From Candidatus Omnitrophota bacterium (GTDB taxonomy: Bacteria > Omnitrophota > Gorgyraeia > Zapsychrales > Fredricksoniimonadaceae), in contig CAIOPG010000004.1 of NCBI GenBank assembly GCA_903860135.1, forward strand, positions 272,648 through 336,647: DNA of 64,000 bases, read 5' to 3'. Shown in pieces: positions 1,240-43,770 of the stretch; position 1 is the stretch's first letter, and each line of letters begins with the position of its first letter. Made by a program: the position numbers and the translations under genes. The notes under the pieces were generated by a model. It was not told where the DNA came from. It did no database searches and saw nothing but the letters and a program-made list of their open reading frames with translations.

Positions 1240-2154
1240 CTAGCCACCGGTTAAATTCTTTAAAGGATTGTTATACATGAAATCCAAAAAGATAGGCGCG
1301 CCGACCAGGATGCCAACAACCGGAAAAATACAAAACAAAAGGGGCAGTAACATCTTTAAAGGCGCCTTGAGTGCCATGGCCTCACCCCGGCGATAGCGTG
1401 CAATGCGCATATCTTCAGAAAGGATATTGAGCGCCTCACTGACCGAAGTACCCATCTTGTCGGCCTGGATCAAGGTGCGCGAAAAAGTTGAAAGATCCGG
1501 GATCTCATACCTTTTTGCCAGATCACGCAGGGCGTCCCGGCGCGGTTTGCCGACATTTATTTCCTGAAGGACGTTATTCATTTCACTGATAAGGTGGGAC
1601 TGATTTGACTTCTCGACCACCCACTTGAGTGCCATCATAAAGTCAAGCCCTGCGTTAACACAAAGGCCGAGAAGATCGACCGTATCCGGCAATTGTTTGA
1701 TCACACTTTCTTTAACAGCTGCGATCTTACTGCGCAACCAGAATTCCGGAAGATAATAAGCTGCCGCCACGGAAAATACGATCCCCATGGGAAGCATTTC
1801 TTTTCCAATGAACGTAAGGGTTACGAAAACAAAGAACGCGCATACCAGTTCCTTGATCAAGAGAAATTCTTCGGGAGAAATGCCCGTAAAAGATACCGCA
1901 ATGCCCCGCATCATCTGCCGGCGCATTTCCTGGCTGATCAGGGGTTTGTTGAGGATCGCCAACCAACGGAAAATTGAGAAAATCGTTACCTGGCGTGAAG
2001 CCTTCTTCTGGGCTTGTGCCGACGATATAACCCCGAAATCATGAACTTTCAAGGTCGGCCTAGGTGTCAGGATATGCATACTAAAGCCAAATACCACCAG
2101 CATCCCCACCGCCACAAACAAAAAGAGAGCCGTCACCAGCATTAAAGCCTCCAT
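1240..2154 (-). CDS. tadC: Flp pilus assembly inner-membrane platform protein TadC-like (T2SS F family)
   Basis: 304 aa, multi-TM, T2SSF-type cytoplasmic domain (…ALRDLAKRYEIPDLSTFSRTLIQADKMGTSVSEALNILSEDMR…); adjacent second T2SSF paralog. Confidence 0.65.
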   Translation of the reverse strand: MEALMLVTALFLFVAVGMLVVFGFSMHILTPRPTLKVHDFGVISSAQAQKKASRQVTIFSIFRWLAILNKPLISQEMRRQMMRGIAVSFTGISPEEFLLIKELVCAFFVFVTLTFIGKEMLPMGIVFSVAAAYYLPEFWLRSKIAAVKESVIKQLPDTVDLLGLCVNAGLDFMMALKWVVEKSNQSHLISEMNNVLQEINVGKPRRDALRDLAKRYEIPDLSTFSRTLIQADKMGTSVSEALNILSEDMRIARYRRGEAMALKAPLKMLLPLLFCIFPVVGILVGAPIFLDFMYNNPLKNLTGG

Positions 2155-2163
2155 AATCCTGGG

Positions 2164-3021
2164 TTAATCATTAAATGAGCTGATCTTGATGATCAGGAAT
2201 GTGCCTACCAGCCAAAGTCCGAGCGCCGTCATGGTCAACATGCGCCCGAGATCCGTGGTCATCATGACATTAAAATATTTAGGGTTTGTCGAGTTAACGA
2301 GAAAAAAGAACCCCACAGGAAGCCCGCTCATAACAAGGGCCTGCAGTTTCCCTTGAACCGTCAATACCATCAGATTTTCTTCGATCTTGCGGCGCTCGCG
2401 GATCGTTCCCACAATGCGCGAAAAGATCAACGGTAAATTACCGCCCGTTTCACGCGAAAGCAGGATGGCGCTGATCATTTGCTGTAACGGCGGTGACAGC
2501 ATGCGCTTGTACAAGCGATTTAACGCCTCGTCGAGCGACACGCCCATCTTGTTTTCACCGAGCACAATGCCAAACTCATGATGGATCGGATTGGGCATTT
2601 CCTCAAAGACAGCCTCCATCGACTGGACCAGGCTCATGCCGCCGCGCAAGGAGCTAGACATGATCATCAAGGCATCGATGAGCTGTCCATCAAATTGACC
2701 CTTGCGTTGCTTCATCAAATGAGAGGCGTAAAACTTTGGCAGGGCCAATCCCAATAATCCACCCCCAAAAATGCCTGCCATACGAAAATTAGGATCTGGC
2801 ATGAGAAAAAACCCAATCGCCGCACCGGCAAAAGGCGCGATCACGAAAGCTTTCTGAACATTCTGTATATCCTCCGCGATCATCGAACGATCCATGCGCC
2901 GCGCAAAGTCTTTAGCGCGTTTTTTATTCATCTCATGAGCCCAGCGCACCGCCGCTGGAATTACAAAATATACGGTTAAAAGAACAGCTACAAAAACAAG
3001 AATAAAACTAACAGCCAGCAT
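2164..3021 (-). CDS. tadB: Flp pilus assembly platform protein TadB-like (T2SS F family)
   Basis: T2SSF-like (…GMSLVQSMEAVFEEMPNPIHHEFGIVLGENKMGVSLDEALNRLYKRM…). Start moved by inference to internal Met (MLAVSFILVF) to avoid overlap with the upstream pilin-like gene; track ORF is 2164..3093. Confidence 0.6.
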   Translation of the reverse strand: MLAVSFILVFVAVLLTVYFVIPAAVRWAHEMNKKRAKDFARRMDRSMIAEDIQNVQKAFVIAPFAGAAIGFFLMPDPNFRMAGIFGGGLLGLALPKFYASHLMKQRKGQFDGQLIDALMIMSSSLRGGMSLVQSMEAVFEEMPNPIHHEFGIVLGENKMGVSLDEALNRLYKRMLSPPLQQMISAILLSRETGGNLPLIFSRIVGTIRERRKIEENLMVLTVQGKLQALVMSGLPVGFFFLVNSTNPKYFNVMMTTDLGRMLTMTALGLWLVGTFLIIKISSFND

Positions 3022-3038
3022 AAACGTCTCTCTAGTTA

Positions 3039-3380
3039 TTAAGGTTGACCACTGCATGCTGCCTGACATGCCGTCCTTACATTGTCCGCACATGTATTAA
3101 ACTGGGTCGAACGCTTGCAGCCTGCCTTTAACAACTCATTATCAAAGCAAGCCTGGGAATACCATAGATGTAACATATCATCATACGCACAATCGATCGT
3201 CGCGCGCGGGCTATACTGCCGCAGGAACCCGATGGTTTCTCCAACCTTGCGGTATTGCCCCTGCAAGGCACGCTGAAGATAACCGCGAAAATAAACCATT
3301 ACCGTCAACACAATGACCATAAGGACAACATATTCCAACAAGCCGAAGGCTTTCTTAACACCTGATTGATCATGCCGCAT
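3039..3380 (-). CDS. Flp/TadE-like prepilin-type protein (113 aa, Cys-rich C-terminal part)
   Basis: N-terminus KKAFGLLEYVVLMVIVLTV matches Flp prepilin processing motif (A/G-XXXX-EY) followed by hydrophobic helix. Confidence 0.45.
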   Translation of the reverse strand: MRHDQSGVKKAFGLLEYVVLMVIVLTVMVYFRGYLQRALQGQYRKVGETIGFLRQYSPRATIDCAYDDMLHLWYSQACFDNELLKAGCKRSTQFNTCADNVRTACQAACSGQP

Positions 3381-3421
3381 GAGCGTCTCCGGTCATTATA
3401 AATCCCCGCCCGATACCATGG

Positions 3422-6211
3422 TTAAGAGCAACATTGAGAACATTTACGGAAAGCCATCTTGTATTTATTGTTTTCAATATAATATCGCGCACATGTTTCT
3501 GTCGCAACGCCCAGCCTCAACAAAGAATTGATATTATCCACGCACGTCACCCGCGTCGGAGCCTTTTGCGGATTCAACATGAACGCTTCGTTAAGGTGTT
3601 CCCCGGCCGGGATCGTGCCCGTTGGCTTGGTCTGCGGCAGGACACAGTTTGTCCACACCTGCGCGGCGGTGGCCGCGGTCTTGGGATTCCCGTGCGGATT
3701 ATGATAAAGGATCCGCCACAAAGAAAGGCCGCTCAGGAATTTTAGAAAACCATTCTCATTAAGATCATGATCTTCGTCATAACGCACCACCCGCAAACCA
3801 ACGCAACCCGAGGTATCTGTCAGCTCATAACACCGCGTAGAACCCAAGAAGCCCGTGGTATATGTTCTGATCCAAGGGAATCTATCCGTGCATGTGTTGA
3901 AACCAGCGGCACCGGTACTGCGGTTGGGTATGGCGGCTTCCACCTTGACAAGGTGCAAATAGCCATACCCGCGCGAGCCACTCCAGTCATCAGGCCGCGG
4001 AGAGAACCAGCCGTAAACAACCTGGTTGCCAAGACCACCGGCCTTTACCGCCGCATCCACAGCCAACACCAACTGCCTAAGCGTACCGGGAGCTGTGTTT
4101 AAATAAGCCAAGGCATTCTGCATAATAACCTTAGCGGCCTGGGCCTTTGTATTCATATCCTGCAAATACCGTTTGCGTGCGGCTATTTTTGCCACCTGAT
4201 TCATCGACAAATACGCACTTTCTTGTATATTTGCCAAATAACTGCTCGAGGCTGGCGAACATACCGCACCGGCACACACCGGCCTTCCGGGATCGGTGTT
4301 GGCATTGAACCCCGTCACCAAAGAACGCGGCATATTATTACAGGCGGTTGTAGGACACGACGGTGTCGCAACGGTGCAACCCGCACAAAGAACCTCGCAG
4401 GCATTAAAGGCGGTTGTTGCCCCCTCGTTGTATTCCAGGCATTTGATCACGCCGCCCAAGGACCCCCATGGCCCTCCTGTCAATATAGCATTGGCCTCTA
4501 TCGGCATAAGCCCCACTTGACTTGCCGGCACACACCAGCTTTGACTGTTGGCATACGGCCCCGCCTGCCAGGTATTGATCAACTGTATCCAACGTGCCAG
4601 ACGTGCCTGCCATAACACCATGGTATCGGCTGTCTGCAACACCGTTTCTTTCCAGGCACCTACCGAACTTAATATTGCTTTTTGCTTTGCGGCATCGGTC
4701 GTCAGCAAGCCTTCAAACGTAGCTTTAAAATAATCCGCCTCGATCGCAAAGGCGTCAAAAGCATCGTTCCTCCACAAATTTTTATGATCAGCGGCTGAAC
4801 AATTACAACCGTTCACAAGTGCCGCCGCCGTTTGGCCGGCTTCCTGACAAGCGGCCACGGCTGTGCCCGAGCTACCCGATTCCATCTTCACCGGATAAAT
4901 TTTTCCGGCTGTATCGGCGAACGTAGCCGAACCAAAATCTGCCCCTTTTTTCCAAACAAAATTTGTTGTCGCGTCAACGGCAGGGTCAACAGGACAGGCT
5001 GTGTCGGCAAGTGGCCGAAAAGCTGTTATATCCGCAACCGTATCGATGACACGCGTATCCAGGCTTGACGGTAAACTGCTTCGGTTACCAAAAACATGCG
5101 CACAACAACCGTTGCCCGTACACGGCTTGGGCAAAACCAGCTGATCATAGGCAACGGTCCCCGATGGACGATAAAGCAAGGGAGACGCCGTTTCCGGCGC
5201 ACACGTTCCAACAGCCGTTGCCGAACACCAATGACAACCGGGGCTGGTTGTTGCCAGACTGCTGTAAGAAAGGCTGGCCAATGCTGGCTGTGTATCCGCC
5301 AGAAGCCATAAAAACTTGAACATATCCCCCTTGCTGTCTCCGCCACGATAAATGCCCAGAGTATCTACCGCTTCGGAACCATAACTGGTGATATACCGCC
5401 GCGTATCCCCGTCATCAGCCTCGAGCACACCCATCAAGTTATTCCCTGGCGTCACTATGCCCAATCTGTCTTCAAAATCTTGCAAAAAGGCACGCAAGGC
5501 CTGAACCGATGCCACCGACACAGGCGCGATGCTTTTCATCCGTTCATTATAAAAATAAGCAAATCTGGGCACTTCTTCTCCGGGAATGCCTTTGTTAGTT
5601 AAAGCATCCGGATTATACCAACGTCCATCCATATCAAGATCCCAGCGATCATTCACCATCACGCCATCGCTCTGAACCGTACTCAAAGCCCCTTTAAGCC
5701 CGGCTTCAAGGTATTGATCTTCAACGGCCGGCATCGCCATCGCCGATTTATTCCAGGCCTTGGTCAGCCCAGGATCGCTGATACCCACCTGCAGTCCGAT
5801 CCCCACAGCCGTTAACACCGCCGCTGTTGCCGCGGCGGCAAAAACATTTCCGGCCAGCAAGGCACTAAAAAACGAACTGCCATTCAAAGAGGCTATCCCG
5901 CAACCCGGAACAAACACCATGATAGCAACAAGAAGAATTAGCGTAAGCAGGGAAGCAAAAAGCCCGGTGTATTGACACAGCTTAACGTTACCATCGAGCT
6001 GTGTCCCCATGATTTGACTTTGTCCATAGCTGGCCATCAACGACACCAGTGTCGATGCCCCGGTATTGGAAGAAATCGTGACCGCCGTCTTTATGGCTGT
6101 CATCCTGGACCAGTTCAGAGAAGCGGCATAAAGGATGAGGGCTACCGCTATCAGAACCATGATGATGAGGGACATTTGCCCTTTACGGCCTACTGGCATA
6201 ACCATCCTCAT
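3422..6211 (-). CDS. Large (929 aa) membrane-anchored, Cys-rich predicted extracellular protein of the Tad locus (TadG-like N-terminus; candidate pilus-associated adhesin)
   Basis: N-terminus RKGQMSLIIMVLIAVALILYA is pseudopilin-like; a second hydrophobic stretch; >40 Cys in the extracellular part; no recognisable enzyme motifs. Located between pilin array and tadB. Confidence 0.4.
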   Translation of the reverse strand: MRMVMPVGRKGQMSLIIMVLIAVALILYAASLNWSRMTAIKTAVTISSNTGASTLVSLMASYGQSQIMGTQLDGNVKLCQYTGLFASLLTLILLVAIMVFVPGCGIASLNGSSFFSALLAGNVFAAAATAAVLTAVGIGLQVGISDPGLTKAWNKSAMAMPAVEDQYLEAGLKGALSTVQSDGVMVNDRWDLDMDGRWYNPDALTNKGIPGEEVPRFAYFYNERMKSIAPVSVASVQALRAFLQDFEDRLGIVTPGNNLMGVLEADDGDTRRYITSYGSEAVDTLGIYRGGDSKGDMFKFLWLLADTQPALASLSYSSLATTSPGCHWCSATAVGTCAPETASPLLYRPSGTVAYDQLVLPKPCTGNGCCAHVFGNRSSLPSSLDTRVIDTVADITAFRPLADTACPVDPAVDATTNFVWKKGADFGSATFADTAGKIYPVKMESGSSGTAVAACQEAGQTAAALVNGCNCSAADHKNLWRNDAFDAFAIEADYFKATFEGLLTTDAAKQKAILSSVGAWKETVLQTADTMVLWQARLARWIQLINTWQAGPYANSQSWCVPASQVGLMPIEANAILTGGPWGSLGGVIKCLEYNEGATTAFNACEVLCAGCTVATPSCPTTACNNMPRSLVTGFNANTDPGRPVCAGAVCSPASSSYLANIQESAYLSMNQVAKIAARKRYLQDMNTKAQAAKVIMQNALAYLNTAPGTLRQLVLAVDAAVKAGGLGNQVVYGWFSPRPDDWSGSRGYGYLHLVKVEAAIPNRSTGAAGFNTCTDRFPWIRTYTTGFLGSTRCYELTDTSGCVGLRVVRYDEDHDLNENGFLKFLSGLSLWRILYHNPHGNPKTAATAAQVWTNCVLPQTKPTGTIPAGEHLNEAFMLNPQKAPTRVTCVDNINSLLRLGVATETCARYYIENNKYKMAFRKCSQCCS

Positions 6212-6227: not shown

Positions 6228-6458
6228 CTATTTCATGGGCCGGACTTGATGAAAATCCGGGTTCAACTGTTGTTCCGTTGAGAGCGATGCGTTCCTTAAA
6301 ACCGCTTCATGATCAAACCGGCGCTCGGCCATATCCATCATGCCCCAGCGAAAAACACCGATCATGCCGTTAATGAGCAAACAGACGACGATCATTCCCG
6401 CCGTATATTCCAGGATAGCCTGCCCATCTTTCTGCTTGTTATGACTCTTTGACATCAT
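6228..6458 (-). CDS. Flp-family prepilin-like protein (76 aa)
   Basis: KDGQAILEYTAGMIVVCLLING = G-QAIL-EY motif plus hydrophobic helix. Confidence 0.5.
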   Translation of the reverse strand: MMSKSHNKQKDGQAILEYTAGMIVVCLLINGMIGVFRWGMMDMAERRFDHEAVLRNASLSTEQQLNPDFHQVRPMK

Positions 6459-7912
6459 GGGGCTGACGTACTTTCATTCCAGGGTTCGTCCATGGCTGTT
6501 ACCCATTTCCGGCCGCGCTTGTCACTGATACGGCTTCGGATAAAAAGTCTCTTCATGGCCGTATCAAAACAGGTGCGCTGGATCATGGCCGTATCCATGC
6601 AACAACTGACACCCGTGGCGGCAGCCCCGCAGGAAGCCTCGACCGACACCGGATTCCTGCTCACAAACCCAGCCGGATCCATCATGTTCCAGTTCAATTG
6701 GTACTCACGTTCTATGACATCATTCTGATTTTTTCTAATTGTACTAACATTCAATGGTTGGCCACCCAATGAAAAATTTTTACCTTCTCGCACATCAAAA
6801 TAGGTTACTTCTCCCGCGGCGCATGTCGCTGTCGCCGTGGGAACACATTGTGTCTGCGAATAGATCCGCATATCGGGCCGCATCCCGGGCTTACGTTCAT
6901 CGGTCCCCGCAAAATCCGCCGCCGACTTGTTTGCGTCCAGATCACCTGCCGTTGTATCAATGACCGCAACCGTATACGCCACATAACCAGCACAGGCCGT
7001 GCCAGCCCACGTCAATGCATAAACGGTCTCTTCGGTGCGATCCCCGTTGACATCATAAGAGGGATACGCCCCATTGTCCGTATCGATTGAATCGGCAACC
7101 TCTTTCAGTGTTTTCCATGTCCATTGCCACGTCGGATCTCCAGCCGTCGTCATATCATCTGTATAAATACCATTGCGATCCAAATCAAACCGTCGCACAT
7201 CGTAAGCATTAAAATCCGTGTTGTTAGCCGTGATGGCCGTATAAAAAGGGGGCGTGGTACCTGTTGCTGTCGCTGTGCCGTAATGTGTCCATTCATAAAT
7301 CAACCGTTGCCGGGCAAGCTTGTTATTGTCTGAATTGATATTGACCACACCAGCACCCCCTGAACACATGCTGTCTCCGCTACCATCAGAAGGCAACAGC
7401 AAGATCGTCAGCTGATCTGCATTCGCCGCCGCCATGGTTGCGGGTGGCGCGGCCAACGCCGACTGTTGAAGTAGCATTTTGTATTTTACGAAAGCCCCCG
7501 TCGACATGTGAAATTCCTGACCATTGATCTTCATATCTACCATGGGAAGATTTTGATCTTCCTTCCAATCTACCGGTAACATAGCATTTTTATTCAGCAT
7601 CCCGGCCCCGGTCACCATGACCGGCTGACGATCAAGAAATCCGTATCTCCCAAAATCACCGGTCAGACGATCTTCAAAAAACACATACGATGCCTGCACC
7701 CGCGACGCCGTGTTACTTTCAGAAGAAAGATACGAACGGCTCAGGGCAATGCGCATGGCCTGCAATTGGGCATTCTGTTGAAAAGAACCGGAAAGAAAAT
7801 TCGTGGCAATACCTGTTATAATAAAAAAAAGCACAGCTCCGAAAATGGCCAATTCAATGATGGATTGCGCCAATGTCGAAGACAGTGCTTTCTTCCTTTG
7901 ATTCTTCATCAT
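6455..7912 (-). CDS. TadG/TadE-like pseudopilin-type large protein (485 aa)
   Basis: N-terminus ALSSTLAQSIIELAIFGAVLFFIITG: A-QSII-E(L) prepilin-like with Glu at +5, single N-terminal TM, large extracellular domain. Confidence 0.5.
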   Translation of the reverse strand: MMKNQRKKALSSTLAQSIIELAIFGAVLFFIITGIATNFLSGSFQQNAQLQAMRIALSRSYLSSESNTASRVQASYVFFEDRLTGDFGRYGFLDRQPVMVTGAGMLNKNAMLPVDWKEDQNLPMVDMKINGQEFHMSTGAFVKYKMLLQQSALAAPPATMAAANADQLTILLLPSDGSGDSMCSGGAGVVNINSDNNKLARQRLIYEWTHYGTATATGTTPPFYTAITANNTDFNAYDVRRFDLDRNGIYTDDMTTAGDPTWQWTWKTLKEVADSIDTDNGAYPSYDVNGDRTEETVYALTWAGTACAGYVAYTVAVIDTTAGDLDANKSAADFAGTDERKPGMRPDMRIYSQTQCVPTATATCAAGEVTYFDVREGKNFSLGGQPLNVSTIRKNQNDVIEREYQLNWNMMDPAGFVSRNPVSVEASCGAAATGVSCCMDTAMIQRTCFDTAMKRLFIRSRISDKRGRKWVTAMDEPWNESTSAP

Positions 7913-8236
7913 TTATGGTCCCGTAGGCGACATTGTTGAAGAAACTGTCTTGGCTTCCGTGCTCGTTGAATCATCCACCCTGTACGTGATCGAACCATTG
8001 ACTCCGGATGCTGTCGCCGGAATAACATAAAGGCGTGACTGAGAGGTTGTGCTTAAGGCATAATGTGTTTGTCCGGTCAGCGCATTGGCATCATACTGAT
8101 CGCCCAGATCATCCACCGACTGTTTCATGCGCCCTTGAAACCCGCGCTTGATGTAGGCCTGCATGGTCAAGAAAGCGGCGATGATAATCATGAGCAATAG
8201 CGAGTATTCCAGAAAACTTTGGGCTTTTCTCATCAT
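7913..8236 (-). CDS. Flp-family pilin-like protein (107 aa, Ser/Thr-rich C-terminus)
   Basis: MMRKAQSFLEYSLLLMIIIAAF: A-QSFL-EY motif + hydrophobic helix. Confidence 0.55.
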   Translation of the reverse strand: MMRKAQSFLEYSLLLMIIIAAFLTMQAYIKRGFQGRMKQSVDDLGDQYDANALTGQTHYALSTTSQSRLYVIPATASGVNGSITYRVDDSTSTEAKTVSSTMSPTGP

Positions 8237-8237
8237 A

Positions 8238-8570
8238 TCAATCCAGGATAAATCCCATATTAGTCAAAGAATTTGTCATTGTCGTTACTTGCTCTTGCAC
8301 ATTGCGCACACTCCATCCGCCCGCATCATTGCGCACATTGTCAATCTGACTGCTTGTGACTGTATTTGATCCCTGCAAATAGGCATCACCCGTATTCATG
8401 TCCTGTTCCGCTCCTTTTTGATCACCGATCTGATCAGCCGCAGATTTCATCATGCTTTGCGTGGTGCGTTTGAGGCGGGGAAACATCGTCATAACGGCAG
8501 CCACAAGAATGGTGATCAGCAGAACATATTCCATCAATGACTGTGCCCGGCGTGACAACAACATATACAT
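8238..8570 (-). CDS. Flp-family pilin-like protein (110 aa)
   Basis: RRAQSLMEYVLLITILVAAV: A-QSLM-EY motif. Confidence 0.55.
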   Translation of the reverse strand: MYMLLSRRAQSLMEYVLLITILVAAVMTMFPRLKRTTQSMMKSAADQIGDQKGAEQDMNTGDAYLQGSNTVTSSQIDNVRNDAGGWSVRNVQEQVTTMTNSLTNMGFILD

Positions 8571-8586
8571 TACCTGTTGTATTAAA

Positions 8587-8925
8587 TTATTGTGGCGCTG
8601 CCTGACTGCTATTGGATACGATCAAACGCTGTGTGCTTGTGTCTTTTTGATACCCCGTAGCCACAGCTTTTTCAGTTGCCTTTGTGTCTGTGTCCGTCGT
8701 CGTTGTTGACGTGGTGTAATAAGGTTCATATTCAACCTGGACTGGTTTATAAAGAGCAAGCGCGGCCTTGGCAACCACGAGCGCATTAATATCAAAACTC
8801 CGGGCTTGCAAGGTGCGGCGAACATAGATTGACATGCCAATGAGCGCGCCAACAACCAAAAAAATCAAAATGACATACTCGGCACTGATACCCTGGGCTT
8901 TTGTACAACGTAACTTCCTTGACAT
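8587..8925 (-). CDS. Flp-family pilin-like protein (~112 aa, Thr-rich; YEPYY motif shared with 9322..9693 paralog)
   Basis: Start placed at internal ATG (8925) preceded by GAGGG RBS: MSRKLRCTKAQGISAEYVILIFLVVGAL. Track ORF 8587..8988 extends upstream through the terminator hairpin. Confidence 0.5.
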   Translation of the reverse strand: MSRKLRCTKAQGISAEYVILIFLVVGALIGMSIYVRRTLQARSFDINALVVAKAALALYKPVQVEYEPYYTTSTTTTDTDTKATEKAVATGYQKDTSTQRLIVSNSSQAAPQ

Positions 8926-8942
8926 ACACCGCCCTCTGATGG

Positions 8943-8979
8943 GTAAAAAGCAGAAAGGGCTCCCCTGAGCCCTTTCTGC
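8943..8979 (-). terminator. Intra-array palindromic hairpin with flanking T-tract (GCAGAAAGGGCTC-4nt-GAGCCCTTTCTGC), placed right after the stop of the 8989..9303 pilin gene
   Basis: 13-bp perfect stem read from sequence; T-tract on both sides (bidirectional terminator-like). Likely attenuates read-through into downstream pilin paralogs. Confidence 0.45.
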
Positions 8980-8988
8980 TTTTGCCAA

Positions 8989-9303
8989 TCAATTACCCCA
9001 ATATTCACCATCCGTATTCGTTCCAATAGCACGAACGGTATTCTGGATCGTGTCATGTACCAACCCAGTCGTTGCAACACCGGAAGTGGAATTTTCCTGT
9101 GTTCGCGAATTGGTTGTCACAACCTTATAATAATTTGCAGCTGATGCTATAGAATATTGATCGCCTATATCATCTGTTGCGCTTTTCAAACGACCTGAAA
9201 TACCACGTTTGATATACGTTTGCAATGTTAAAAGTGCCGCAATGATGATAACCATCAAAATAGCATACTCGAGCACGCTTTGACCACGCTTTGTTTGCAA
9301 CAT
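8989..9303 (-). CDS. Flp-family pilin-like protein (104 aa)
   Basis: MLQTKRGQSVLEYAILMVIIIAALLTLQ: canonical G-XXXX-EY Flp motif. Confidence 0.6.
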   Translation of the reverse strand: MLQTKRGQSVLEYAILMVIIIAALLTLQTYIKRGISGRLKSATDDIGDQYSIASAANYYKVVTTNSRTQENSTSGVATTGLVHDTIQNTVRAIGTNTDGEYWGN

Positions 9304-9321
9304 AATGCTTTGTCCTTTCTC

Positions 9322-9693
9322 TTAGAAACCGGCAGCTGTTTCAGCAGCAGCCAGACCTCCGCCAACGGCGTTTTTGTTATAGATTGACGTGTCAACGTAA
9401 CCAGCCGCAACTGTTGTGGCTACGCTTGTATCTGTTGCAATATTGGTGTTTTCAAACTTTGTTTTCTGTGAATCCTTTGTCTCACTCTTATTGGTATAAT
9501 ACGGTTCATACTGTAATGTTGTCCCGAGAGCATTTGTCTCATCACGGAACTTGACATTAACGTCGCGGATACGGCCTTGCAGGGTGCGCTGGGCATACAT
9601 TTGCATGGCAATAACACCGCCGATAACAAGTGCTATCAGGATGGCATATTCTGCTGTGTTTTGTGCTTTTTTATTTCTGAATCTTTTTAACAT
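9322..9693 (-). CDS. Flp-family pilin-like protein (~123 aa)
   Basis: Start at ATG 9693 with GGAGG RBS 6 nt upstream: MLKRFRNKKAQNTAEYAILIALVIGGV (A-QNTA-EY). Track start 9708 is a TTG. Confidence 0.55.
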   Translation of the reverse strand: MLKRFRNKKAQNTAEYAILIALVIGGVIAMQMYAQRTLQGRIRDVNVKFRDETNALGTTLQYEPYYTNKSETKDSQKTKFENTNIATDTSVATTVAAGYVDTSIYNKNAVGGGLAAAETAAGF

Positions 9694-9704
9694 TGTAACC
9701 TCCT

Positions 9705-9893
9705 TCAATGTGAAGCATTTAATTTGTCAGCCATTAATCCAATTCCATTGATCGCATCGCTAAACGACCGGTTGACGGTCGTACGGAATGGCGACCCAGG
9801 TGTTACAACAAGCCCGATGATGATAACAATAACAGCTGTGACCAAAAGCACATATTCCAGCGTGCTTTGACCCTTTCGGTAACATCTTGACAT
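9705..9893 (-). CDS. flp: Flp pilin (62 aa)
   Basis: MSRCYRKGQSTLEYVLLVTAVIVIIIGLVV: canonical G-QSTL-EY; size typical of Flp; AGGAGG RBS upstream. Confidence 0.7.
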   Translation of the reverse strand: MSRCYRKGQSTLEYVLLVTAVIVIIIGLVVTPGSPFRTTVNRSFSDAINGIGLMADKLNASH

Positions 9894-9918
9894 GGCATTC
9901 CCTCCTGTTTAATTAAGC

Positions 9919-10065
9919 TTATTCTCTTTGGAATTCCGCTGTTATGCATTTTTGCTTCGACTGGACAGCACGGTACACATAGGTACTCATCGCAACAGCC
10001 GCTGTTGTGACAATGGCGACGACAAGGGCATATTCAACAACATTCTGGCCTTTGTAACGACACAT
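9919..10065 (-). CDS. flp: Flp pilin (48 aa), not present in the supplied ORF track (<60 aa)
   Basis: Manual translation: MCRYKGQNVVEYALVVAIVTTAAVAMSTYVYRAVQSKQKCITAEFQRE*; G-QNVV-EY motif; GAGG RBS upstream; first gene of the pilin array. Confidence 0.65.
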   Translation of the reverse strand: MCRYKGQNVVEYALVVAIVTTAAVAMSTYVYRAVQSKQKCITAEFQRE

Positions 10066-10282
10066 TGATAACCTCATCGCCGTTCCCCGTGTGCGTTAAG
10101 ACATAACACCCGAGACCCCCTGAATCTTTTGGGAGCGGGAATCCACCCGGGCACTCTATGTTGACGCTGGTTACCCTCGTCAACCCGATCCGGCCCCTAC
10201 AGAACCGATTTCGATGATGCTCCGTCAAAGAACGGAGCTGTAAGACATCCTACACAAGAAAAACAAACACATTCATAAATTG

Positions 10283-10366: not shown

Positions 10367-12154
10367 CTATGCTTTATTTTCAATGGAAAACCACCATTTT
10401 TGTCTATTTCTTTCGGCGATATCCACACCATTGATCTTGCGCAACAGGGTTGCCAGTTGATCCCTGCCCCCAAAACCCTGCGGAACAACCAACCTAACAA
10501 AAACAGAACCATTCCGTCGTTGTAAATACCCTGAAAGCGTATAGATGGATGATAATAGCTCCACATTGTCAAGTCCATAACGCTGGGCTAAATATACCTG
10601 ACATATGTTCAGCATTTTTTTCAAAACAACACCCGGTGCCGTATGGTCGGTATTTTCAATCTGTAAATAACGTTGTTTGTTTGTGGCTGTGGCATCATGA
10701 TCGTTGTGAAAATTTTCCAAACAGGAAAACTTTTCCAGGTAATGATCTACAATATCTTTAGCGGAAGCTTGTCCTGCCAGCAGGTTTGTAATAAAAAACA
10801 GTTTCTTTTCATTCCCGGGTACTTTTACAACCAAGCCTCTTAATATTTCAGATTGTTTATCAGCATCTGTAAACTGACAAAAACCATCGATCATTGAATA
10901 ATATTGGTCCAAAATAGCGTTGTACACTTTTTGGGGAGTGCCTGTTTCATCAAAAAGAAGCTTGTCAAAGAAACAACTTTCAATGTTGAAACCAGCAATA
11001 AAATTAATTTTTTTCGATGGGTCAAGACGGCCTTCCCACAACAAATCCTTCGCGCCTCCCCACAAACAAATTTTAACTGGTTTTTCTTCAGCCGCGCCAC
11101 TTAAGAACATCAGTGTCTCTTTTATGGCATCGGTTAAACCTTCCGAACACCTTAAAACCAGTGGCTTGACAGGGCAGGCAACACGATCAACAGCGTTCTC
11201 AACAGATTTAACGATCGAACACATATGGGCTTCTGGCACTTTATCCAGAAAACACCCCAGATCATGCCTCAACAAATAATGTTGTGCTTTATTACTTTCA
11301 AATGAAAAATATGCATTATCCACCACAGCCACAGCAACCTCAACATCGATGGCAGCCGCAAGGGACTTGTTCGAGTCGATATCATTTAATAATGTGTGGA
11401 AGGAAGAATCCATTAAAGGTTGTTCCTGTCCAAGCAATGTCCAAACAGACAATGCCTGTGCCTGTTCAATTTCTTTACCCCGTTCATATCCAAGCCCCTT
11501 GAACAAAACACCGGCTTCGAATAAACGCCGTCCCTCCATTATGTTACCGGCTATCCCCACAAACAACTCTTCGGTCAACTGACCGCTCAAAATGTCCAAT
11601 AAAGCCACATACAGAATGCTTATGCCCAAATTATTAATAATGGGATATGCCTCCTCTGCCCAAATATACGAACCCCTCACATCAAAAGAAACATCTTGAA
11701 CGACATCCGCTTGATTCCTGGCTAATAAATCAGGACTGAGCGTGGCTTGCTCAAACGTTGCGTCTTCTATGTTATCAATCAATCCCATATTGGGTGGCTT
11801 ACTAATGTTCACATCACTGTCCACAACATTTATACTGCTTAATACGCCTGTAGTTAAAATATTCCCTTGCGCCATGCTATCATCTTTTAACTCGTGCAAG
11901 AATGGCTTCACTTCAGCTAATAATTGTTCTTTTTTGTCTTTGGGGATAAAGAAATTCTTGGCAGAGGCACGGCCAACCGGATTACTTAAATTATATTCTT
12001 TAATAATGGCATTAATGGAGGATTTTGAAACTTCGATCTGGAAGGCTTCACGCACAATAGCTACAAGTTTTCGACAACTTAAAGAAGGCACTTCTTTCTT
12101 TTTGTCGATAATTAAATCTACAACATCTTTTCTTAATTTATAAGTAACACCCAT
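10367..12154 (-). CDS. Hypothetical protein (595 aa), lower GC than neighbours, N-terminal HTH-like segment
   Basis: Long ORF; N-terminus LSCRKLVAIVREAFQIEVSKSSINAIIKEY resembles a transposase-type HTH, but no DDE or other catalytic motif recognised. Confidence 0.35.
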   Translation of the reverse strand: MGVTYKLRKDVVDLIIDKKKEVPSLSCRKLVAIVREAFQIEVSKSSINAIIKEYNLSNPVGRASAKNFFIPKDKKEQLLAEVKPFLHELKDDSMAQGNILTTGVLSSINVVDSDVNISKPPNMGLIDNIEDATFEQATLSPDLLARNQADVVQDVSFDVRGSYIWAEEAYPIINNLGISILYVALLDILSGQLTEELFVGIAGNIMEGRRLFEAGVLFKGLGYERGKEIEQAQALSVWTLLGQEQPLMDSSFHTLLNDIDSNKSLAAAIDVEVAVAVVDNAYFSFESNKAQHYLLRHDLGCFLDKVPEAHMCSIVKSVENAVDRVACPVKPLVLRCSEGLTDAIKETLMFLSGAAEEKPVKICLWGGAKDLLWEGRLDPSKKINFIAGFNIESCFFDKLLFDETGTPQKVYNAILDQYYSMIDGFCQFTDADKQSEILRGLVVKVPGNEKKLFFITNLLAGQASAKDIVDHYLEKFSCLENFHNDHDATATNKQRYLQIENTDHTAPGVVLKKMLNICQVYLAQRYGLDNVELLSSIYTLSGYLQRRNGSVFVRLVVPQGFGGRDQLATLLRKINGVDIAERNRQKWWFSIENKA

Positions 12155-12190
12155 ATTTTTTGTCCATTCTGGACATTGCTGCGGCGTTGG

Positions 12191-12538
12191 CTAAAAAGCT
12201 TTAATTTCAATTACATCACCTACGCTGGTCTCTGTTTGCTTAATGGTGCCGATAGGAAGTTCAATGGCACATGTCGCTTTCCAGAAAACAGAACTCATCT
12301 GGTTTGGTTTAATTTCTTCGACCAAACCAACAACAACGCCACGCCTATCAATAAAAACAACATCGATGGCCACTGACATAAAAAACATATGAATAGAATT
12401 GCATGATGTGATCACAAGCCCTTGACCTGGTTCAAGTGACTGCCGTCCTATTAAGCCTTTTGCTCTTGAAAATGGAGTTTTAGCTACTTCAGCGTGTTGG
12501 CTCAAACACTTATTATTCTTAAGATTTTTAATGATCAC
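12191..12538 (-). CDS. DUF192 (COG1430) family protein
   Basis: 115 aa; pattern …AKTPFSRAKGLIGRQSLEPGQGLVITSCNSIHMFFMSVAIDVVFIDRRGVV… typical of DUF192. Confidence 0.5.
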   Translation of the reverse strand: MIIKNLKNNKCLSQHAEVAKTPFSRAKGLIGRQSLEPGQGLVITSCNSIHMFFMSVAIDVVFIDRRGVVVGLVEEIKPNQMSSVFWKATCAIELPIGTIKQTETSVGDVIEIKAF

Positions 12539-14724: not shown

Positions 14725-16578
14725 TTATTTATGCGCGGAAATATTATTTAAAAATGAATCCAGGCTATATAAAATAGAAACTGTAATTTCCAATGTTTCA
14801 GCCTGAATAGTCTGTGGAAAAGCATCATACGGTGCCAATATTTGTGCCGTATTAACCGCATCTTGATCAAAGACGGGGTGTCCTGAAGATTTTTTTACAA
14901 CAACATCTTTAAGTGTGCCGTCTTTTGTTATGACCAGAGCTAGCTGAACGATGCCTTTCCAATTCTTTTCCTGCGCTTCATACGGATACGCAATGGCCGT
15001 TGATATTTTTTCCTGGATCAATTTGGCATATTTATCTTCCTCTGAAACAATGGGAGAGGATGATTTTACCGGTTCGACTTTGGATGCTATTTTGTTATTA
15101 ACAGGTGTCGTTGGTGCCGGTGCCGTTTTATTCACCATTGATTTTACAGGATTGGAACCCCCGACAACGTCGGTTAAAGCCGGAGCCCTATTGACTTCAG
15201 CCTTCAACTGCCGGGCAAAGTCATCCGCTTTATCTTCTGCGGCAAACGCTGAGCCGCTCTTTTGCGGCACATCAAGGCTTGCTGGTGTTTTCTTATCTTT
15301 GCCGTTAGTATCCAACAGCTTATCCGTGTCTTCGATCAGCTTTTTATCATTAGGTAGAATGGTTGCCGTAATGGAAATAACAACCTCGGTTTCTTCATTG
15401 GGTGCTGGCGTTTTTGAACTGCGGAAAAATATTCCCACAACCGGGATCTTGCTAAGGAAAGGAACACGACGAACCACTTCCGTATTCCGGCGCTTGATCA
15501 TGCCCGCAAGAACAATGGTCTGATGGTCTTGCAATAAAAGTTGTGTTTTTGCAGATCGCGTTAAAAAGGCAACGTCCGTCCCTGTAGGCTTTGAACCATC
15601 GATTTCGCTGATCTCGGCATTGAGCAAAATATTTACAAGATTGCCAGCCTGAATCGATGGTGTAACCGCCATAGTAACACCGTAAGGTTTAAATGTCTTG
15701 TTTTGCTGTGTCGATCCGCCACTGGCACTCGTCGTCGTTGTATTGATCGGGATTTCTCCGCCAACCAAAAAGGTCGCTTCTTTTCCACTGATAACCACAA
15801 GTCGCGGCTTCGAAAGGATCTTGCCTTTCCCTTCTTCGATCAACGCATTGACGGCACCGACCAGCGCATTGGTACGGCTAAGGCTTCCGATCCTCCATAT
15901 GTCGCTCAATGAACCCTGATTCGTTGGGATTGTTTCCTGATATGTGGGATTCAACGGATTAGTTGCGCCATCCATACCCCAATCGATCCCCATCTCTTTG
16001 GTAAGCGTTGTGGACAACTCGGTGATCTGCATATCGATCTGAACAAGGTCTTCAATCTTTTCTTTCTGAACAAGATTAATGATGCGGTCCATGAAAGGAT
16101 CAATGACCTTGATCAACACCTCCATCTTTTCTTCCGACAGCGCACCTGTAAGAACGACCTTGCCTTCATCTTTATTTTCACTTAATACCACATTCTTAAT
16201 GCCAACGCCCGCCAGTAAAGATTGAAGCCTTTTCCTGACAAGGCCGGGATCTTCCTGAACAACACGAATGATAACCGTCCGTTTCCCGCTATCATCCCAA
16301 ATAAACAAAACCGTCTGCCCCGGATCAATGGCTATAATATCCACAGAATCAATGCGCGCATCGTTAATATCAGCAACAACAGGATCTGTGATCGAAACTC
16401 TTTTTAAATTTTTCGCGGGAATGCTTTGAATGTCACCCTTAACAATTTGAAGCTCTTCATTTCCTTTTTCTGCGGCCGCAAAAGAAAGCGTCGGCATGCC
16501 ACTTGACAACATAACAACCGCCAAAGCAATTGATAACGCGGTTCTCATCACCCTGGAAAAATCAACCGTGTTCATCAA
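14725..16578 (-). CDS. Secretin (CpaC/RcpA-like) with C-terminal TonB_C-like domain
   Basis: Signal peptide; secretin C-domain (…VPFLSKIPVVGIFFRSS…EVVISITATILP). A Pro/Lys-rich linker follows. The C-terminus YPYEAQEKNWKGIVQLALVITKDGTLKDVVVKKSSGHPVFDQDAVNTAQILAPYDAFP matches the TonB C-terminal domain pattern. Confidence 0.75.
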   Translation of the reverse strand: MMNTVDFSRVMRTALSIALAVVMLSSGMPTLSFAAAEKGNEELQIVKGDIQSIPAKNLKRVSITDPVVADINDARIDSVDIIAIDPGQTVLFIWDDSGKRTVIIRVVQEDPGLVRKRLQSLLAGVGIKNVVLSENKDEGKVVLTGALSEEKMEVLIKVIDPFMDRIINLVQKEKIEDLVQIDMQITELSTTLTKEMGIDWGMDGATNPLNPTYQETIPTNQGSLSDIWRIGSLSRTNALVGAVNALIEEGKGKILSKPRLVVISGKEATFLVGGEIPINTTTTSASGGSTQQNKTFKPYGVTMAVTPSIQAGNLVNILLNAEISEIDGSKPTGTDVAFLTRSAKTQLLLQDHQTIVLAGMIKRRNTEVVRRVPFLSKIPVVGIFFRSSKTPAPNEETEVVISITATILPNDKKLIEDTDKLLDTNGKDKKTPASLDVPQKSGSAFAAEDKADDFARQLKAEVNRAPALTDVVGGSNPVKSMVNKTAPAPTTPVNNKIASKVEPVKSSSPIVSEEDKYAKLIQEKISTAIAYPYEAQEKNWKGIVQLALVITKDGTLKDVVVKKSSGHPVFDQDAVNTAQILAPYDAFPQTIQAETLEITVSILYSLDSFLNNISAHK

Positions 16579-17414
16579 TTAGTCCCCCTTCCACTTTTGA
16601 AGATCTGAATGGCAGGCCCTTGCGAAAGTCCCAATGAGGCAGCGCCTGACGATGCGGTATCCGATACATTAAGGTCCGCCCCGGTATTTTGTAACACATA
16701 CTCGGCCAGTGTTGACCATGTCGCGGCAGAGATCATGGTGGACTTTTTTTCATTCGGTGAACGAAGGGCTAATTCAAGTTTGCCATTCTTTTCCGCAAAG
16801 GACAACAGGCTGGCCTCTTCGGGCGATACAGCAAAGGTGATCTTCAGCGAACGATCGTTTTGCTGTTGATCATAACCGCCAGGTTGATCAATATTGGTAT
16901 TAATGGCCAGTATCTGAAGATTCTGAAAGATCATGGCTGTTACAGCCTCTCTCTTTTCCTTATCTTTCTTTCTTCCCATCGAAGACTCCATATCGGGAAG
17001 ATTCAGTTGCGCGATAATATCCACATAATCACCAGGATTAAGCAAGCCACCCACAGCACCGAGAGAATCTATCATCAGTGTCAGCGCACGTTTCCCGGCC
17101 GGCATACGCAAGGCCAATGAAACAGCCTTGCGTTCCTTCCCTGGAACTTCCGCCACAGCGACGGCTCCTGCATTCTGCGCAGATTTCTGCATATTCTGCT
17201 CGACTTGAGCAATCTTTTGATTGAGTGCCCCGAGTTCCTGTTTATAAGCATCATCACGTTGCTTTTGATCTTTTTGATATTTCTGCGCAATCTTGGTTGT
17301 CTGCTCATTGATCGATTGCGTCACATAAACACTGACCAAATAAGCGGCAAGAAGACCTATGCCCACAGCAAGGAGAAGCACCAACAACTGATTCTTATTT
17401 TCCATCAATGCCAT
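16575..17414 (-). CDS. Flp pilus assembly protein CpaB/RcpC-like
   Basis: N-terminal TM, coiled-coil, SAF-like segment RALTLMIDSLGAVGGLLNPGDYVDIIAQLN; located directly upstream of secretin. Confidence 0.5.
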   Translation of the reverse strand: MALMENKNQLLVLLLAVGIGLLAAYLVSVYVTQSINEQTTKIAQKYQKDQKQRDDAYKQELGALNQKIAQVEQNMQKSAQNAGAVAVAEVPGKERKAVSLALRMPAGKRALTLMIDSLGAVGGLLNPGDYVDIIAQLNLPDMESSMGRKKDKEKREAVTAMIFQNLQILAINTNIDQPGGYDQQQNDRSLKITFAVSPEEASLLSFAEKNGKLELALRSPNEKKSTMISAATWSTLAEYVLQNTGADLNVSDTASSGAASLGLSQGPAIQIFKSGRGTN

Positions 17415-17430: not shown

Positions 17431-18372
17431 TTACTCTTTTAAAAGGCTCTCGTTAACCTGAACCTTGATTGCTTTCTGAATATCTTTTACTCTCGCCTGG
17501 AGCAATTCCTGCTGTTTGCGCAGTTTTAGGAAACTCATAAGATCCGCCTTAATCTCGGCCAGTGCAACAGTATCACCACCCTGAACGGTTTCAACCTTAA
17601 CAATATAAAAACCATCGGGCCCCTCAAACACAGAAGAAACATCACCTGCATTTAAGTTGGCAACAGCCGCTGCCATAGCGGGCACCGCTACCTCGGCATT
17701 CAACGCAACCACGCCACCATCTGCCGCTGTTTTGCCCTTTGACTTATCTTTGGCAAGCTGGGCAAAATCCGACCCTTGAAGGATTTGAACAAGAATGGCA
17801 TTGGCGTCAGCTTTTGTTGCCACCACGATTTCGCGCAAGTGCTTTTCTTTCGGTTTTTTAAATTCGTTGGGATTTTCATTGTAATATTTTGTTACTTCTT
17901 CATCACCAATAACAACATCCTTGGTAATTTGCGTGACCGATTCCTGCACTAAAAGTGTATTTTCAAACTCTTTCATGGCCGTCTTAACTGTGCTGCTACT
18001 ATCAAGCTGATCCTTGCGTGCCTGCTGAATCAAAAGCTGTTGACGCACAAGCTCATTAAGGAGCATGGCCTTGGCACCTGGTTCTTTTTCATTAAAATCT
18101 TTAACTGATTCTTTAACCACCTTGATGCGCTGATTAAATTCATCGCTCGTAATCGTCCAGTCACCCACTTTTGCCAATACATCGGCAGGCAACGCCACTG
18201 TTTCGACCGGTTGATTGGTGCTCTCGGCAACAGGTGTAATGGACACCGCCACCGGTGTTGCTGGCGCTTTGACGACCTTGCGCGGCTCAACCTTATTGCA
18301 CCCCATGATGGCCAAAACAAAAAAACTAGAAACAAAAACTAAAAATTTATTTACCCTCATTCTACCCTCCAT
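17431..18372 (-). CDS. Parvulin-type peptidyl-prolyl cis-trans isomerase lipoprotein (PrsA/SurA-like)
   Basis: Lipobox (VLAIMGC); SurA_N-like region; PpiC-type PPIase motif (…FAQLAKDKSK…DGGVVALN…GFYIVKV). Confidence 0.7.
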   Translation of the reverse strand: MEGRMRVNKFLVFVSSFFVLAIMGCNKVEPRKVVKAPATPVAVSITPVAESTNQPVETVALPADVLAKVGDWTITSDEFNQRIKVVKESVKDFNEKEPGAKAMLLNELVRQQLLIQQARKDQLDSSSTVKTAMKEFENTLLVQESVTQITKDVVIGDEEVTKYYNENPNEFKKPKEKHLREIVVATKADANAILVQILQGSDFAQLAKDKSKGKTAADGGVVALNAEVAVPAMAAAVANLNAGDVSSVFEGPDGFYIVKVETVQGGDTVALAEIKADLMSFLKLRKQQELLQARVKDIQKAIKVQVNESLLKE

Positions 18373-25000: not shown

Positions 25001-26181
25001 AATTTTCTTTACGGATCACACACTTTGTGTCTTGCCCTGATAACTCAAGCTCCACTTCTGTATCCGTTATGTTTTTCAGGATATCCTGCATGTATTGTGG
25101 ATTATACCCCACCATCACTTCATTGCCGCCATAAACGATCGGCAATTCCTCACGGGACTCTCCAATATCGGGTGTTGTTTTTGTCACTATCAATTTATCT
25201 TTGAAAACTTCAAATTTTACTGCCTGATAATCAGGTATAGATAATAAATTGGCTCGACGGATAGCCGCCAGAAAATCCTGGGTGTTGATTCTAACTTTTA
25301 CAGCCGTTTCTTTGGGAATAACCTGTGAATAATTTGGAAAATCTCCTTCAATGATGCGTGTGGCAATTAAAACGCCATTGATATCAAACATCACCTGACT
25401 GGTTCCAGGAACAAACAGCACATCTCCAATATCTTTCAGATTTCTATTTATTTCAGCAACGGCTTTAATAGGTAATATAAAACTTACATCTTGTATTACA
25501 GGTTCCAGCAAAGCGCACTCCATTTTAGCCAAGCGACGACCATCGGTTGCCACTAGACGTAAAATATTTTTTGTGGCTTCCATTAATATACCATTAAGCA
25601 CATACCGTGATTCTTCATGAGAAACAGCAAACGCTGTCATACGAAACATTTCTTTTAGATCTGACTGTTTGATCTTAATGGCTTCTTTATCTTTAAATTC
25701 CGGGAATTTTGGAAATTCTTCTTTGGGCAAACCTAATAATTTAATATTGCAATGCTGACCTTCAATGTCAATTTGATTATTTTTTCGGGTATTGATTACC
25801 ACATCTCCACTGGGAAATTCACGAATAATATCGCTGAATCTTTTGGCTGGAATGGTAATAGCTCCATCCTCCATAATACTAACAGGGATCTCACAGCAAA
25901 TCCCTATATCAAGATCAGTTGTATATAAACATAATGTATCTTTTTTTGTTTCCAACAACATATTGGAAAGAATCGGCAGTGTGGCTTTTGATGAAACAAC
26001 ATTTTGAACAGTTTGGATTCCATAAAGCAGAGCTTCTTTAGTTATTTTAACCTTCATGTTATACACAACTCCTTTATTTCTCTATTTAAAAACACGTTTA
26101 GTAATAATGGTTATAGGTGCTGTGAATATTTTAATAAGTTCAAAAACTATTCAAACATAACGAGTTGTAAAATATATACAT

Positions 26182-26190
26182 TGTGGATAA
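26182..26190 (-). promoter_or_regulatory. DnaA box (TGTGGATAA = TTATCCACA on minus) in dnaN–dnaA spacer
   Basis: Perfect 9-mer consensus read from sequence. Confidence 0.5.
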
Positions 26191-26208
26191 CTTGCAACAT
26201 ACGGTGAA

Positions 26209-27561: not shown

Positions 27562-27597
27562 AATACCAGATATTCTTTCTATAGTGGAACATATCAA

Positions 27598-28016: not shown

Positions 28017-28034
28017 CTGACAGCTGTCACGTTT

Positions 28035-42740: not shown

Positions 42741-42742
42741 AC

Positions 42743-43768: not shown

Positions 43769-43770
43769 AG

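Follow-up and report, generated by a model that had tools for sequence, protein, structure and literature searches.

Why should the outer-membrane pore of a pilus machine end in a domain known from TonB? The question is raised by a gene on the minus strand of a 64,000-nucleotide stretch from a Candidatus Omnitrophota bacterium (contig CAIOPG010000004.1; the whole stretch is called here the window), that encodes the outer-membrane secretin for a type IVc (Tad/Flp) pilus machine. The initial annotation had read positions 14725-16578 as a secretin joined by a Pro/Lys-rich linker to a C-terminal TonB_C-like domain, and our analysis confirms both folds inside a Tad locus, above the cutoffs of Pfam and NCBIfam and in agreement with Foldseek. 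An open reading frame (ORF) runs unbroken at exactly these coordinates, giving 617 aa from a TTG and closing with the TAA at 14725-14727. Its second codon is an ATG at 16575, and it is probably this ATG that is the true start, giving 616 aa, because it shares nucleotides with the TGA stop codon of cpaB, the gene upstream, is preceded by a Shine-Dalgarno-like GGAAGGGGG motif, and yields the 616-aa length of P0001, a database protein 99% identical to that of the window.

The body of the protein is a genuine member of the Tad secretin family. The Pfam Secretin match (PF00263, residues 245-408) scores 134.1 bits (E 4.8e-39) at a cutoff of 27.5 bits and spans profile positions 1-168 of 169; in Foldseek comparison with the Protein Data Bank (PDB) the body matches 39 secretin chains at E<=2.3e-11, among them secretins of type II and type III secretion systems and type IV pili, and the Tad secretin RcpA (8odn_A) at E 5e-13. 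With RcpA of Pseudomonas aeruginosa and CpaC of Caulobacter crescentus it has in common the signal peptide, the pil_N domain, the secretin core, the cpaB and cpaE/cpaF neighbours and the 8odn fold. The signal peptide has a basic N-region and a hydrophobic stretch, ALSIALAVVMLSS, followed by SFA/AAA ahead of E37. In the AlphaFold2 (AF2) model, a monomer built from a 40-sequence alignment (A1) with a predicted template-modelling score (pTM) of 0.40, the pil_N domain, of a type usual in CpaC/RcpA secretins, is all-beta with a predicted local distance difference test score (pLDDT) >90. It is followed by a second ring-type domain composed of helix 111-125, strands 131-135 and 140-147, helix 149-165 and strand 166-172, for which Pfam offers a sub-threshold YscD BON-like match. 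The barrel core past residue 250 is modelled at pLDDT ~70-90, lower values being found in the loop region 200-245.

The C-terminal domain is a bona fide TonB_C, and this identity is secure because Pfam, NCBIfam, AF2 and Foldseek concur. The earlier reading, that the last ~80 aa fit the TonB/TolA C-terminal consensus almost position by position, holds: Pfam TonB_C (PF03544) matches residues 529-606 with 58.6 bits (E 8.4e-16, cutoff 24.6) over profile positions 3-79 of 79, TonB_2 is found at residues 515-577 with 23.3 bits (cutoff 22), and the NCBIfam model tonB_Cterm (TIGR01352) gives 46.6 bits at a cutoff of 27.1. Lack of a profile match and a disordered C-terminus had been named as the two outcomes that would speak against the domain, and neither was found, the segment ~511-617 being predicted as folded at pLDDT 86-96 with the topology helix-helix-strand-strand-helix-strand-helix. 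Structurally it matches solved TonB C-terminal domains at a template-modelling score of 0.62-0.77 normalised to the target (0.73-0.77 for the best), namely Helicobacter pylori TonB (5lw8/6sly), TonB bound to TbpA (9dc4_T) and to BtuB (2gsk_B), FusB, HasB and domain III of TolA, with which it shares the alpha/beta fold and the YP and SSG motifs; the best superpositions have a root-mean-square deviation (rmsd) of 1.5-2.3 A, those on TonB of the BtuB and TbpA complexes 1.5-1.6 A. By sequence the nearest solved relative, and the sole match of phmmer against the PDB, is H. pylori TonB (E ~1e-4), which possesses the same additional N-terminal helix.

Within the 40 aligned sequences P532, S565 and G566 of the two motifs are invariant and Y531 and S564 nearly so, and ten columns in or just before the domain do not vary at all (Y517, Q522, P532, G542, G554, S565, G566, D571, I602 and Y604). 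The short helix that ends the window protein, SLDSFLKNISAHK, is kept only within a sub-clade, and what follows the domain varies from 0 to 28 aa across loci.

Between pore and domain lies a spacer, of which the earlier description stands in part. It is flexible, as its residues 425-510 are modelled at pLDDT <50, and consists mainly of K and A (12.5% each), V (10.4%) and D, P and S (9.4% each). As a Pro/Lys-rich, TonB-like element it does not hold: the enrichment is mild (P 9.4% and K 12.5%, versus 5.2% and 7.9% in the whole protein), and none of the Glu-Pro/Lys-Pro dipeptide repeats of TonB were found in the tether sequence. Among 79 related loci its length goes from 25 to 227 aa with a median of 55. 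A conserved strand resembling a Ton box was looked for in alignment A1, both in the variable region at the secretin N-terminus and in the linker, and none was found; the segment ETEVVIS (residues 397-403) was considered for this role and rejected, being the last barrel strand common to secretins.

Is this architecture an oddity of one genome? According to our analysis it is the rule across Omnitrophota, peculiar neither to the genome of the window nor to a single assembly. The initial annotation had asked how the architecture is distributed across genomes, and the fusion is present in all 240 homologues listed and in 79/79 informative species-level loci. Secretin and TonB_C occur together in 120/120 listed homologues of the window protein (38-99% identity), and again in 120/120 listed homologues of its 33%-identical relative from Candidatus Gygaella obscura, the best 120 of at least 530 matches at E<=1e-10 with that query. 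When one genome per species of the Genome Taxonomy Database (GTDB) was scanned, at least 495 stretches encoded relatives; the best 80 loci were analysed, and their gene order gyrA-mdh-ppiC-cpaB-secretin-cpaEF-DUF192-595-aa protein is nearly invariant. A profile made from the alignment finds TonB_C in 79/80 of the secretin ORFs, 73 times as a single copy and 6 times as two in tandem. The tandem copies stand at the secretin C-terminus in L009, L013, L014, L015, L024 and L073, and one database protein (P0363, 1091 aa) combines a secretin and two TonB_C domains with another ~500 residues. The earlier statement that such a fusion is no standard Tad architecture is thus correct with respect to the studied systems, where RcpA ends in a short tail, and incorrect within Omnitrophota, where it is the standard one.

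Mean pairwise identity in the 40-sequence alignment amounts to 50.2% for pil_N, 54.4% for the secretin core, 53.8% for TonB_C and 16.6% for the linker. TonB_C at 53.8% is as conserved as the core at 54.4% and has its own invariant columns: selection holds it as tightly as the pore, while of the tether no more is required than its presence. The same data refute the notion of a functionless artefact, by which the secretin would be mis-assembled or read through into a downstream tonB-like gene, and to which we assign practically no probability. One locus, L071, at first seemed to favour it by having no TonB_C, but its 1127-aa secretin/cpaE-F ORF (1802-5185) stems from a masked run of N and is rejected as a true loss; moreover, the ORF is unbroken in 79 independent assemblies and several hundred protein clusters, with TonB_C conserved as well as the secretin core.

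The named homologues all come from Candidatus Omnitrophota/Omnitrophica except one labelled Deltaproteobacteria, and a few loci or proteins in the wider set bear the labels Planctomycetales, Elusimicrobia, Phycisphaerae or Deltaproteobacteria. We read these labels as probable artefacts of binning or taxonomy, and not as independent occurrences, because the loci with context share the exact Omnitrophota synteny; the Deltaproteobacteria-labelled protein comes without gene context. Full-text searches found no description of the fusion in the literature, and neither TonB nor the secretin architecture appears in the Omnitrophota Tad analysis of Seymour et al. (PMC10066038). Neither the pore nor the domain is new by itself; the novelty lies in their covalent union, in the fixation of this union throughout the phylum, and in a parallel decoration of TolC-like channels.

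This last point emerged from a search of the full library by phmmer with the TonB_C domain alone, which returned 4852 matches, 190 of them at E<=1e-10. Among these are TolC-like outer-membrane efflux proteins with 2, 3 or 7 TonB_C repeats at the N-terminus (P0302, P0390, P0391 and P0380), whose TonB_C is closely related to that of the window (E 4.7e-17) and whose named homologues are from Candidatus Omnitrophica. P0316 and P0308 are further TolC-like efflux proteins with such N-terminal repeats, and a homologue, P0395, has TPR repeats where the others have TonB_C. P0302 (L081, 8001-10076) heads an operon for resistance-nodulation-division (RND) efflux; the neighbouring giant ORF spans at least 4373 aa, and such ORFs are typical of Omnitrophota. 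With the window secretin these channels share the phylum, the related TonB_C and its fusion in cis to a multimeric outer-membrane channel, and they differ in the channel family, in the N-terminal placement of the modules and in their greater number. Because two unrelated families of multimeric outer-membrane channels carry the domain in cis and in multiple copies, the sequences point to a ligand that is generic to the envelope, and to anchoring or scaffolding by avidity, rather than to a pilus-specific partner.

What, then, may the tail do for the secretin? To our knowledge, the targeting, assembly and fixation of secretins are solved differently in every studied system, by pilotins, AMIN domains, TsaP, CpaD or ExeAB, and several of these provide a measure for comparison. 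The C-terminal tail of RcpA is short and unstructured, and its last four residues are the binding site of the pilotin TadD outside the barrel (PMC10499894), whereas the window secretin has ~200 extra residues of tether and TonB_C, no short S-tail and no pilotin gene in its locus. In C. crescentus the gene directly downstream of cpaC is cpaD, encoding an essential lipoprotein of predicted OmpA-like fold that forms a belt tying the barrel to peptidoglycan (PMC13170226). The tail of the window secretin takes the same slot, after the secretin and before cpaE/F, and is likewise proposed to lie around the barrel, tied to the envelope; CpaD, however, is a separate lipoprotein of another fold, so the resemblance is positional and functional only, with no sequence relationship by Pfam (no CpaD match at E<=1). 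Among type IVa systems the AMIN domains of PilQ and the LysM protein TsaP are accessory modules that fix the secretin to the cell wall, AMIN also in cis, but they are N-terminal or act in trans, have other folds, and their peptidoglycan binding is demonstrated or accepted. TonB-family C-terminal domains have been linked to type IV pilus or secretin function in PocAB-TonB3 of P. aeruginosa and TonB2 of Acinetobacter baumannii (PMC5285504; PMC8811193); there they belong to free-standing, inner-membrane-anchored proteins with ExbBD-like partners, and here TonB_C is covalently part of the secretin itself.

We propose, at about even chances, that the tail is a cis-encoded module for mooring the pore, for its assembly, or for both, in place of pilotin and belt proteins acting in trans. 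The initial annotation had considered tethering of the channel to peptidoglycan or to TonB-box partners; our data speak for tethering or assembly as such, with no preference for one ligand. Past its last barrel strand each subunit runs into the disordered tether and then into the folded TonB_C. Canonical Tad secretins form 13-14-mers. If this holds for the Omnitrophota pore, 13-28 leashed TonB_C modules may surround its periplasmic side; by analogy they would emerge from the barrel at the place of the pilotin-binding tail in P. aeruginosa RcpA, and would fill the operon slot of the Caulobacter peptidoglycan-binding belt lipoprotein. There they could moor the pore, or help to assemble it, through a generic component of the envelope near the outer membrane. 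The candidate ligand is a short extended peptide of some abundant envelope protein, captured by beta-strand augmentation, no other way of binding being documented for the fold; alternatively, the modules may bind the cell wall, or may join with their neighbours into a belt. As the shortest tethers (25-34 aa) would reach only ~10 nm even when fully extended, a target common to all loci should be found close to the barrel wall and no deeper than the cell-wall layer, which would leave out the inner membrane. CpaB, docking on the secretin N-domain, probably continues to line up the pore with the inner-membrane platform, as in Pseudomonas; both partners, CpaB/RcpC and the pil_N domain, are encoded in the window, and in P. 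aeruginosa the RcpA N-domain receives a C-terminal beta-hairpin of RcpC/CpaB that completes its sheet (PMC12307814). A wider version of the proposal, that TonB_C in Omnitrophota was freed from Ton energy transduction and redeployed as a general anchor or assembly module, tethered in cis to channels and replacing pilotins or peptidoglycan-binding lipoproteins, seems to us less likely than not.

Several points weigh against the mooring or assembly role. The sole well-established activity of TonB_C is to pair with the Ton box of a TonB-dependent transporter. That TonB binds peptidoglycan was reportedly observed by Kaserer and colleagues in 2008 and is not generally accepted; besides, the TonB_C domains here are acidic (median pI 4.85, 90% of them below pH 7, net charge ~ -4), and such a charge would mildly disfavour electrostatic binding to anionic peptidoglycan. 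Both the stoichiometry and the place where the tail leaves the barrel are carried over from RcpA, and the AF2 monomer, given its pTM, is uninformative on where TonB_C docks.

Another reading keeps beta-augmentation and changes the partner: TonB_C would capture a Ton-box-like strand of the pilus machine itself, be it on CpaB, a minor pilin, one of the 485-, 929- and 595-aa proteins of the locus or the secretin's own N-terminus, and so align or gate the pore, as in the PocAB-TonB3 model where TonB3 is proposed to contact the N0 domain of PilQ in P. aeruginosa. The documented mode of the fold and the close superposition on BtuB- and TbpA-bound TonB agree with this, the fusion is strictly tied to a fixed set of Tad genes, and the type IV pili of P. 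aeruginosa and A. baumannii depend genetically on TonB homologues for their assembly or function (PMC5285504, PMC8811193). We nevertheless hold it for unlikely, considering that a like TonB_C sits on TolC-like channels without Tad partners, that no conserved extended motif was found in the variable N-terminal region or the linker, that the interface of the CpaB hairpin and the secretin N-domain already explains alignment, and that 25-aa tethers are too short for inner-membrane partners. It may also be that the tail serves assembly only, recruiting a chaperone (for instance a SurA-like parvulin) or the BAM or Lol machinery, or driving oligomerisation, with a pilotin-independent action and no later structural role. 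Here the tail would stand in for the pilotin-binding tail of RcpA, consistent with the lack of a pilotin gene in the locus and with the lipobox-bearing PpiC/SurA-like gene that adjoins cpaB on its upstream side wherever a locus reaches so far; secretins and TolC-type channels, both with TonB_C, are moreover composite barrels with unusual assembly demands. Yet 2-7 copies on efflux channels and two on some secretins suit avidity for a persistent ligand and not transient targeting, the ppiC synteny may just reflect the frozen gyrA-mdh-ppiC neighbourhood, and there is no evidence of contact between TonB_C and a parvulin, so that an assembly role alone seems to us quite improbable.

The tail is not an energy transducer of the TonB type, because it has no inner-membrane anchor, its leash is disordered and not a proline rod, and no Ton/Tol motor gene is nearby. 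Unlike in TonB, the domain belongs to an outer-membrane protein without ExbBD context and with a spacer that is no Glu-Pro/Lys-Pro rod, for which reasons it cannot transduce the proton-motive force as TonB does. Searches among the ORFs >=150 aa of the 64-kb window and the small ORFs of the Tad locus gave no exbB, exbD, tolQ, tolR or Plug/TonB_dep_Rec transporter gene, nor one for a TPR pilotin or a CpaD-type protein. A looser Ton-type coupling, with TonB_C binding the Ton boxes of TonB-dependent transporters, acting as a competitor of a real TonB, or being itself drawn by an ExbBD/TolQR-like motor so as to gate the pore, could appeal to a sequence and fold indistinguishable from bona fide TonB C-terminal domains. 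We regard it as very unlikely: with a secretin behind a cleavable signal peptide there is no inner-membrane anchor to take up force, the tether is hypervariable and disordered and no rigid rod, and according to a recent preprint on Omnitrophota the regions examined there contain no canonical clusters of TonB-dependent receptors (10.64898/2026.06.07.730766).

The mooring or assembly role, if true, would be of importance in several respects. With a leashed TonB-type domain, Omnitrophota would be using a so far unexamined solution throughout a phylum whose Tad machine is the main candidate for attachment to, or attack on, host cells and is expressed in its only cultured representative (PMC10066038). 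An anchor or assembly device of this type would give a testable handle on pilotin-independent biogenesis of secretins and an ExbBD-independent function for the TonB_C fold; should the wider redeployment be true, one of the best-known periplasmic domains would acquire a second, energy-independent role, and ultra-small, possibly predatory cells a lineage-specific way of holding large pores. The parallel TolC-like fusion suggests that a more general principle governs how envelopes are organised in the phylum. An annotation problem is also corrected, since the homologues are called 'TonB family protein' by NCBI and 'pilus assembly protein CpaC' by JGI, each name covering half of the architecture. 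For specialists in secretion systems we see the finding as noteworthy and tractable; it overturns nothing, and its mechanism is inferred.

Features of the secretin gene and of its Tad locus, in coordinates of the window
Feature	Coordinates	Strand	Basis
Whole gene: Tad-type secretin with C-terminal TonB_C	14725..16578	-	ORF listing, end sequences, Pfam, NCBIfam
Sec-type signal peptide, residues ~1-36	16471..16578	-	read from translation; AF2 helix 4-25
T2SS-T3SS_pil_N domain, residues 41-106	16261..16458	-	Pfam PF13629, 29.5 bits (cutoff 23)
Second periplasmic ring-type alpha/beta domain, residues 111-172	16063..16248	-	AF2, pLDDT ~90
Secretin core, residues 178-408	15355..16047	-	Pfam Secretin and Foldseek
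Disordered low-complexity tether, residues 416-511 (96 aa)	15046..15333	-	AF2 and composition
TonB_C domain, residues 512-606 (Pfam 529-606)	14761..15045	-	Pfam, NCBIfam, AF2 (pLDDT 89-96), Foldseek, phmmer
Short C-terminal helix, residues 607-617 (SLDSFLKNISAHK)	14728..14760	-	AF2 helix 606-616; alignment A1
ppiC: PpiC/SurA-like parvulin, lipobox-like IMGC	17431..18372	-	Pfam Rotamase_2, 75.4 bits
cpaB/rcpC, 279 aa, periplasmic alignment-ring protein	16575..17414	-	Pfam RcpC, 85.9 bits; TIGR03177, 94 bits (cutoff 71)
Fused cpaE (tadZ, MinD-like)-cpaF (tadA) ATPase, 728 aa	12528..14714	-	Pfam AAA_31/ParA 4-241 and T2SSE 367-643
DUF192 protein	12191..12538	-	Pfam DUF192, 72 bits; always directly after cpaE-F
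~8 small Flp/class-III-signal pilin-like genes	6228..10077	-	N-terminal G/Q-S-x-x-E-Y and hydrophobic helix motifs
485-aa protein, pilin-like N-terminal helix, no Pfam match	6455..7912	-	
929-aa protein, pilin-like N-terminal helix, Cys-rich, no Pfam match	3422..6211	-	
tadB, inner-membrane platform	2164..3093	-	Pfam T2SSF (tadB and tadC: 53.8 and 53.9 bits)
tadC, inner-membrane platform	1240..2154	-	Pfam T2SSF

The Tad/Flp locus around the secretin is complete and tightly packed on the minus strand. Genes for CpaD, TadD, RcpB or TPR proteins were not found in it by Pfam at E<=1e-3 to 1, and the secretin itself gives no CpaD match at E<=1. The parvulin gene adjoins cpaB upstream in the window and in all loci that reach so far, including the distant L078, and cpaB is syntenic in all related loci; a SurA_N_3 match of the parvulin falls just below the cutoff (25.9 versus 27.2 bits). 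This syntenic parvulin could be a chaperone of the secretin, or merely a part of the frozen neighbourhood.

Downstream, 10 nt separate the secretin stop from the start of the fused cpaE-cpaF, whose score of 321.5 bits with the TadA-family NCBIfam model is under the cutoff of 373.15 bits. CpaE and CpaF are separate proteins in the studied Tad systems; the CpaE/TadZ-CpaF/TadA fusion recurs in all related loci that extend far enough. In some loci the gap between secretin and cpaE-F holds inserts of 1-1.3 kb, and a conserved partner gene at this place was considered and rejected, as the inserts are not common to the loci: that of L008 (11753-12928) encodes an AAA-ATPase-like protein, and that of L040 (11628-12638) a 336-aa beta-barrel-like protein with a signal peptide and a C-terminal GIQF resembling the outer-membrane beta-signal. 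After cpaE-F and the DUF192 gene comes, as a constant member of the locus, a 595-aa protein (within 10367-12538, minus strand) that has no Pfam match; only its N-terminal ~90 aa, helix-turn-helix-like, are kept across loci. Among the pilin-like genes the one at 9705-9893 passes the Class_IIIsignal cutoff (23.9 versus 23.7 bits) and Flp_Fap remains sub-threshold; an array of ~8 such genes is unusually large.

Upstream of the Tad locus lie mdh, gyrA, gyrB, dnaN and dnaA (26209-27597, minus strand), and the other replichore starts with yidC and parAB, after which housekeeping genes follow. GC skew changes its sign and GC content falls to 0.355 at 26-28 kb, and a scan for DnaA boxes found only two perfect ones, at 26182 and 27656, on either side of dnaA. 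The skew, the GC dip, the boxes and the two gene flanks together suggest a chromosomal origin at ~26000-28200 and therefore an origin-proximal Tad locus. The Tad locus of V. archaeovorus LiM is likewise origin-proximal and expressed, Tad being a hallmark of the phylum (Seymour et al., PMC10066038).

Two minor observations concern the remaining part of the window, on the plus strand. Class-I Glu/Gln-tRNA synthetase paralogues, a 425-aa protein of the GluRS type (48972-50249) and a 577-aa one of the GlnRS type (54463-56196), are found 4 kb apart, and between them stand proteins of 372 and 599 aa with no Pfam match. At 42737-45168, amid housekeeping genes, there are proteins with Fic and Bro-N domains, which may represent a small mobile or phage-derived insertion.

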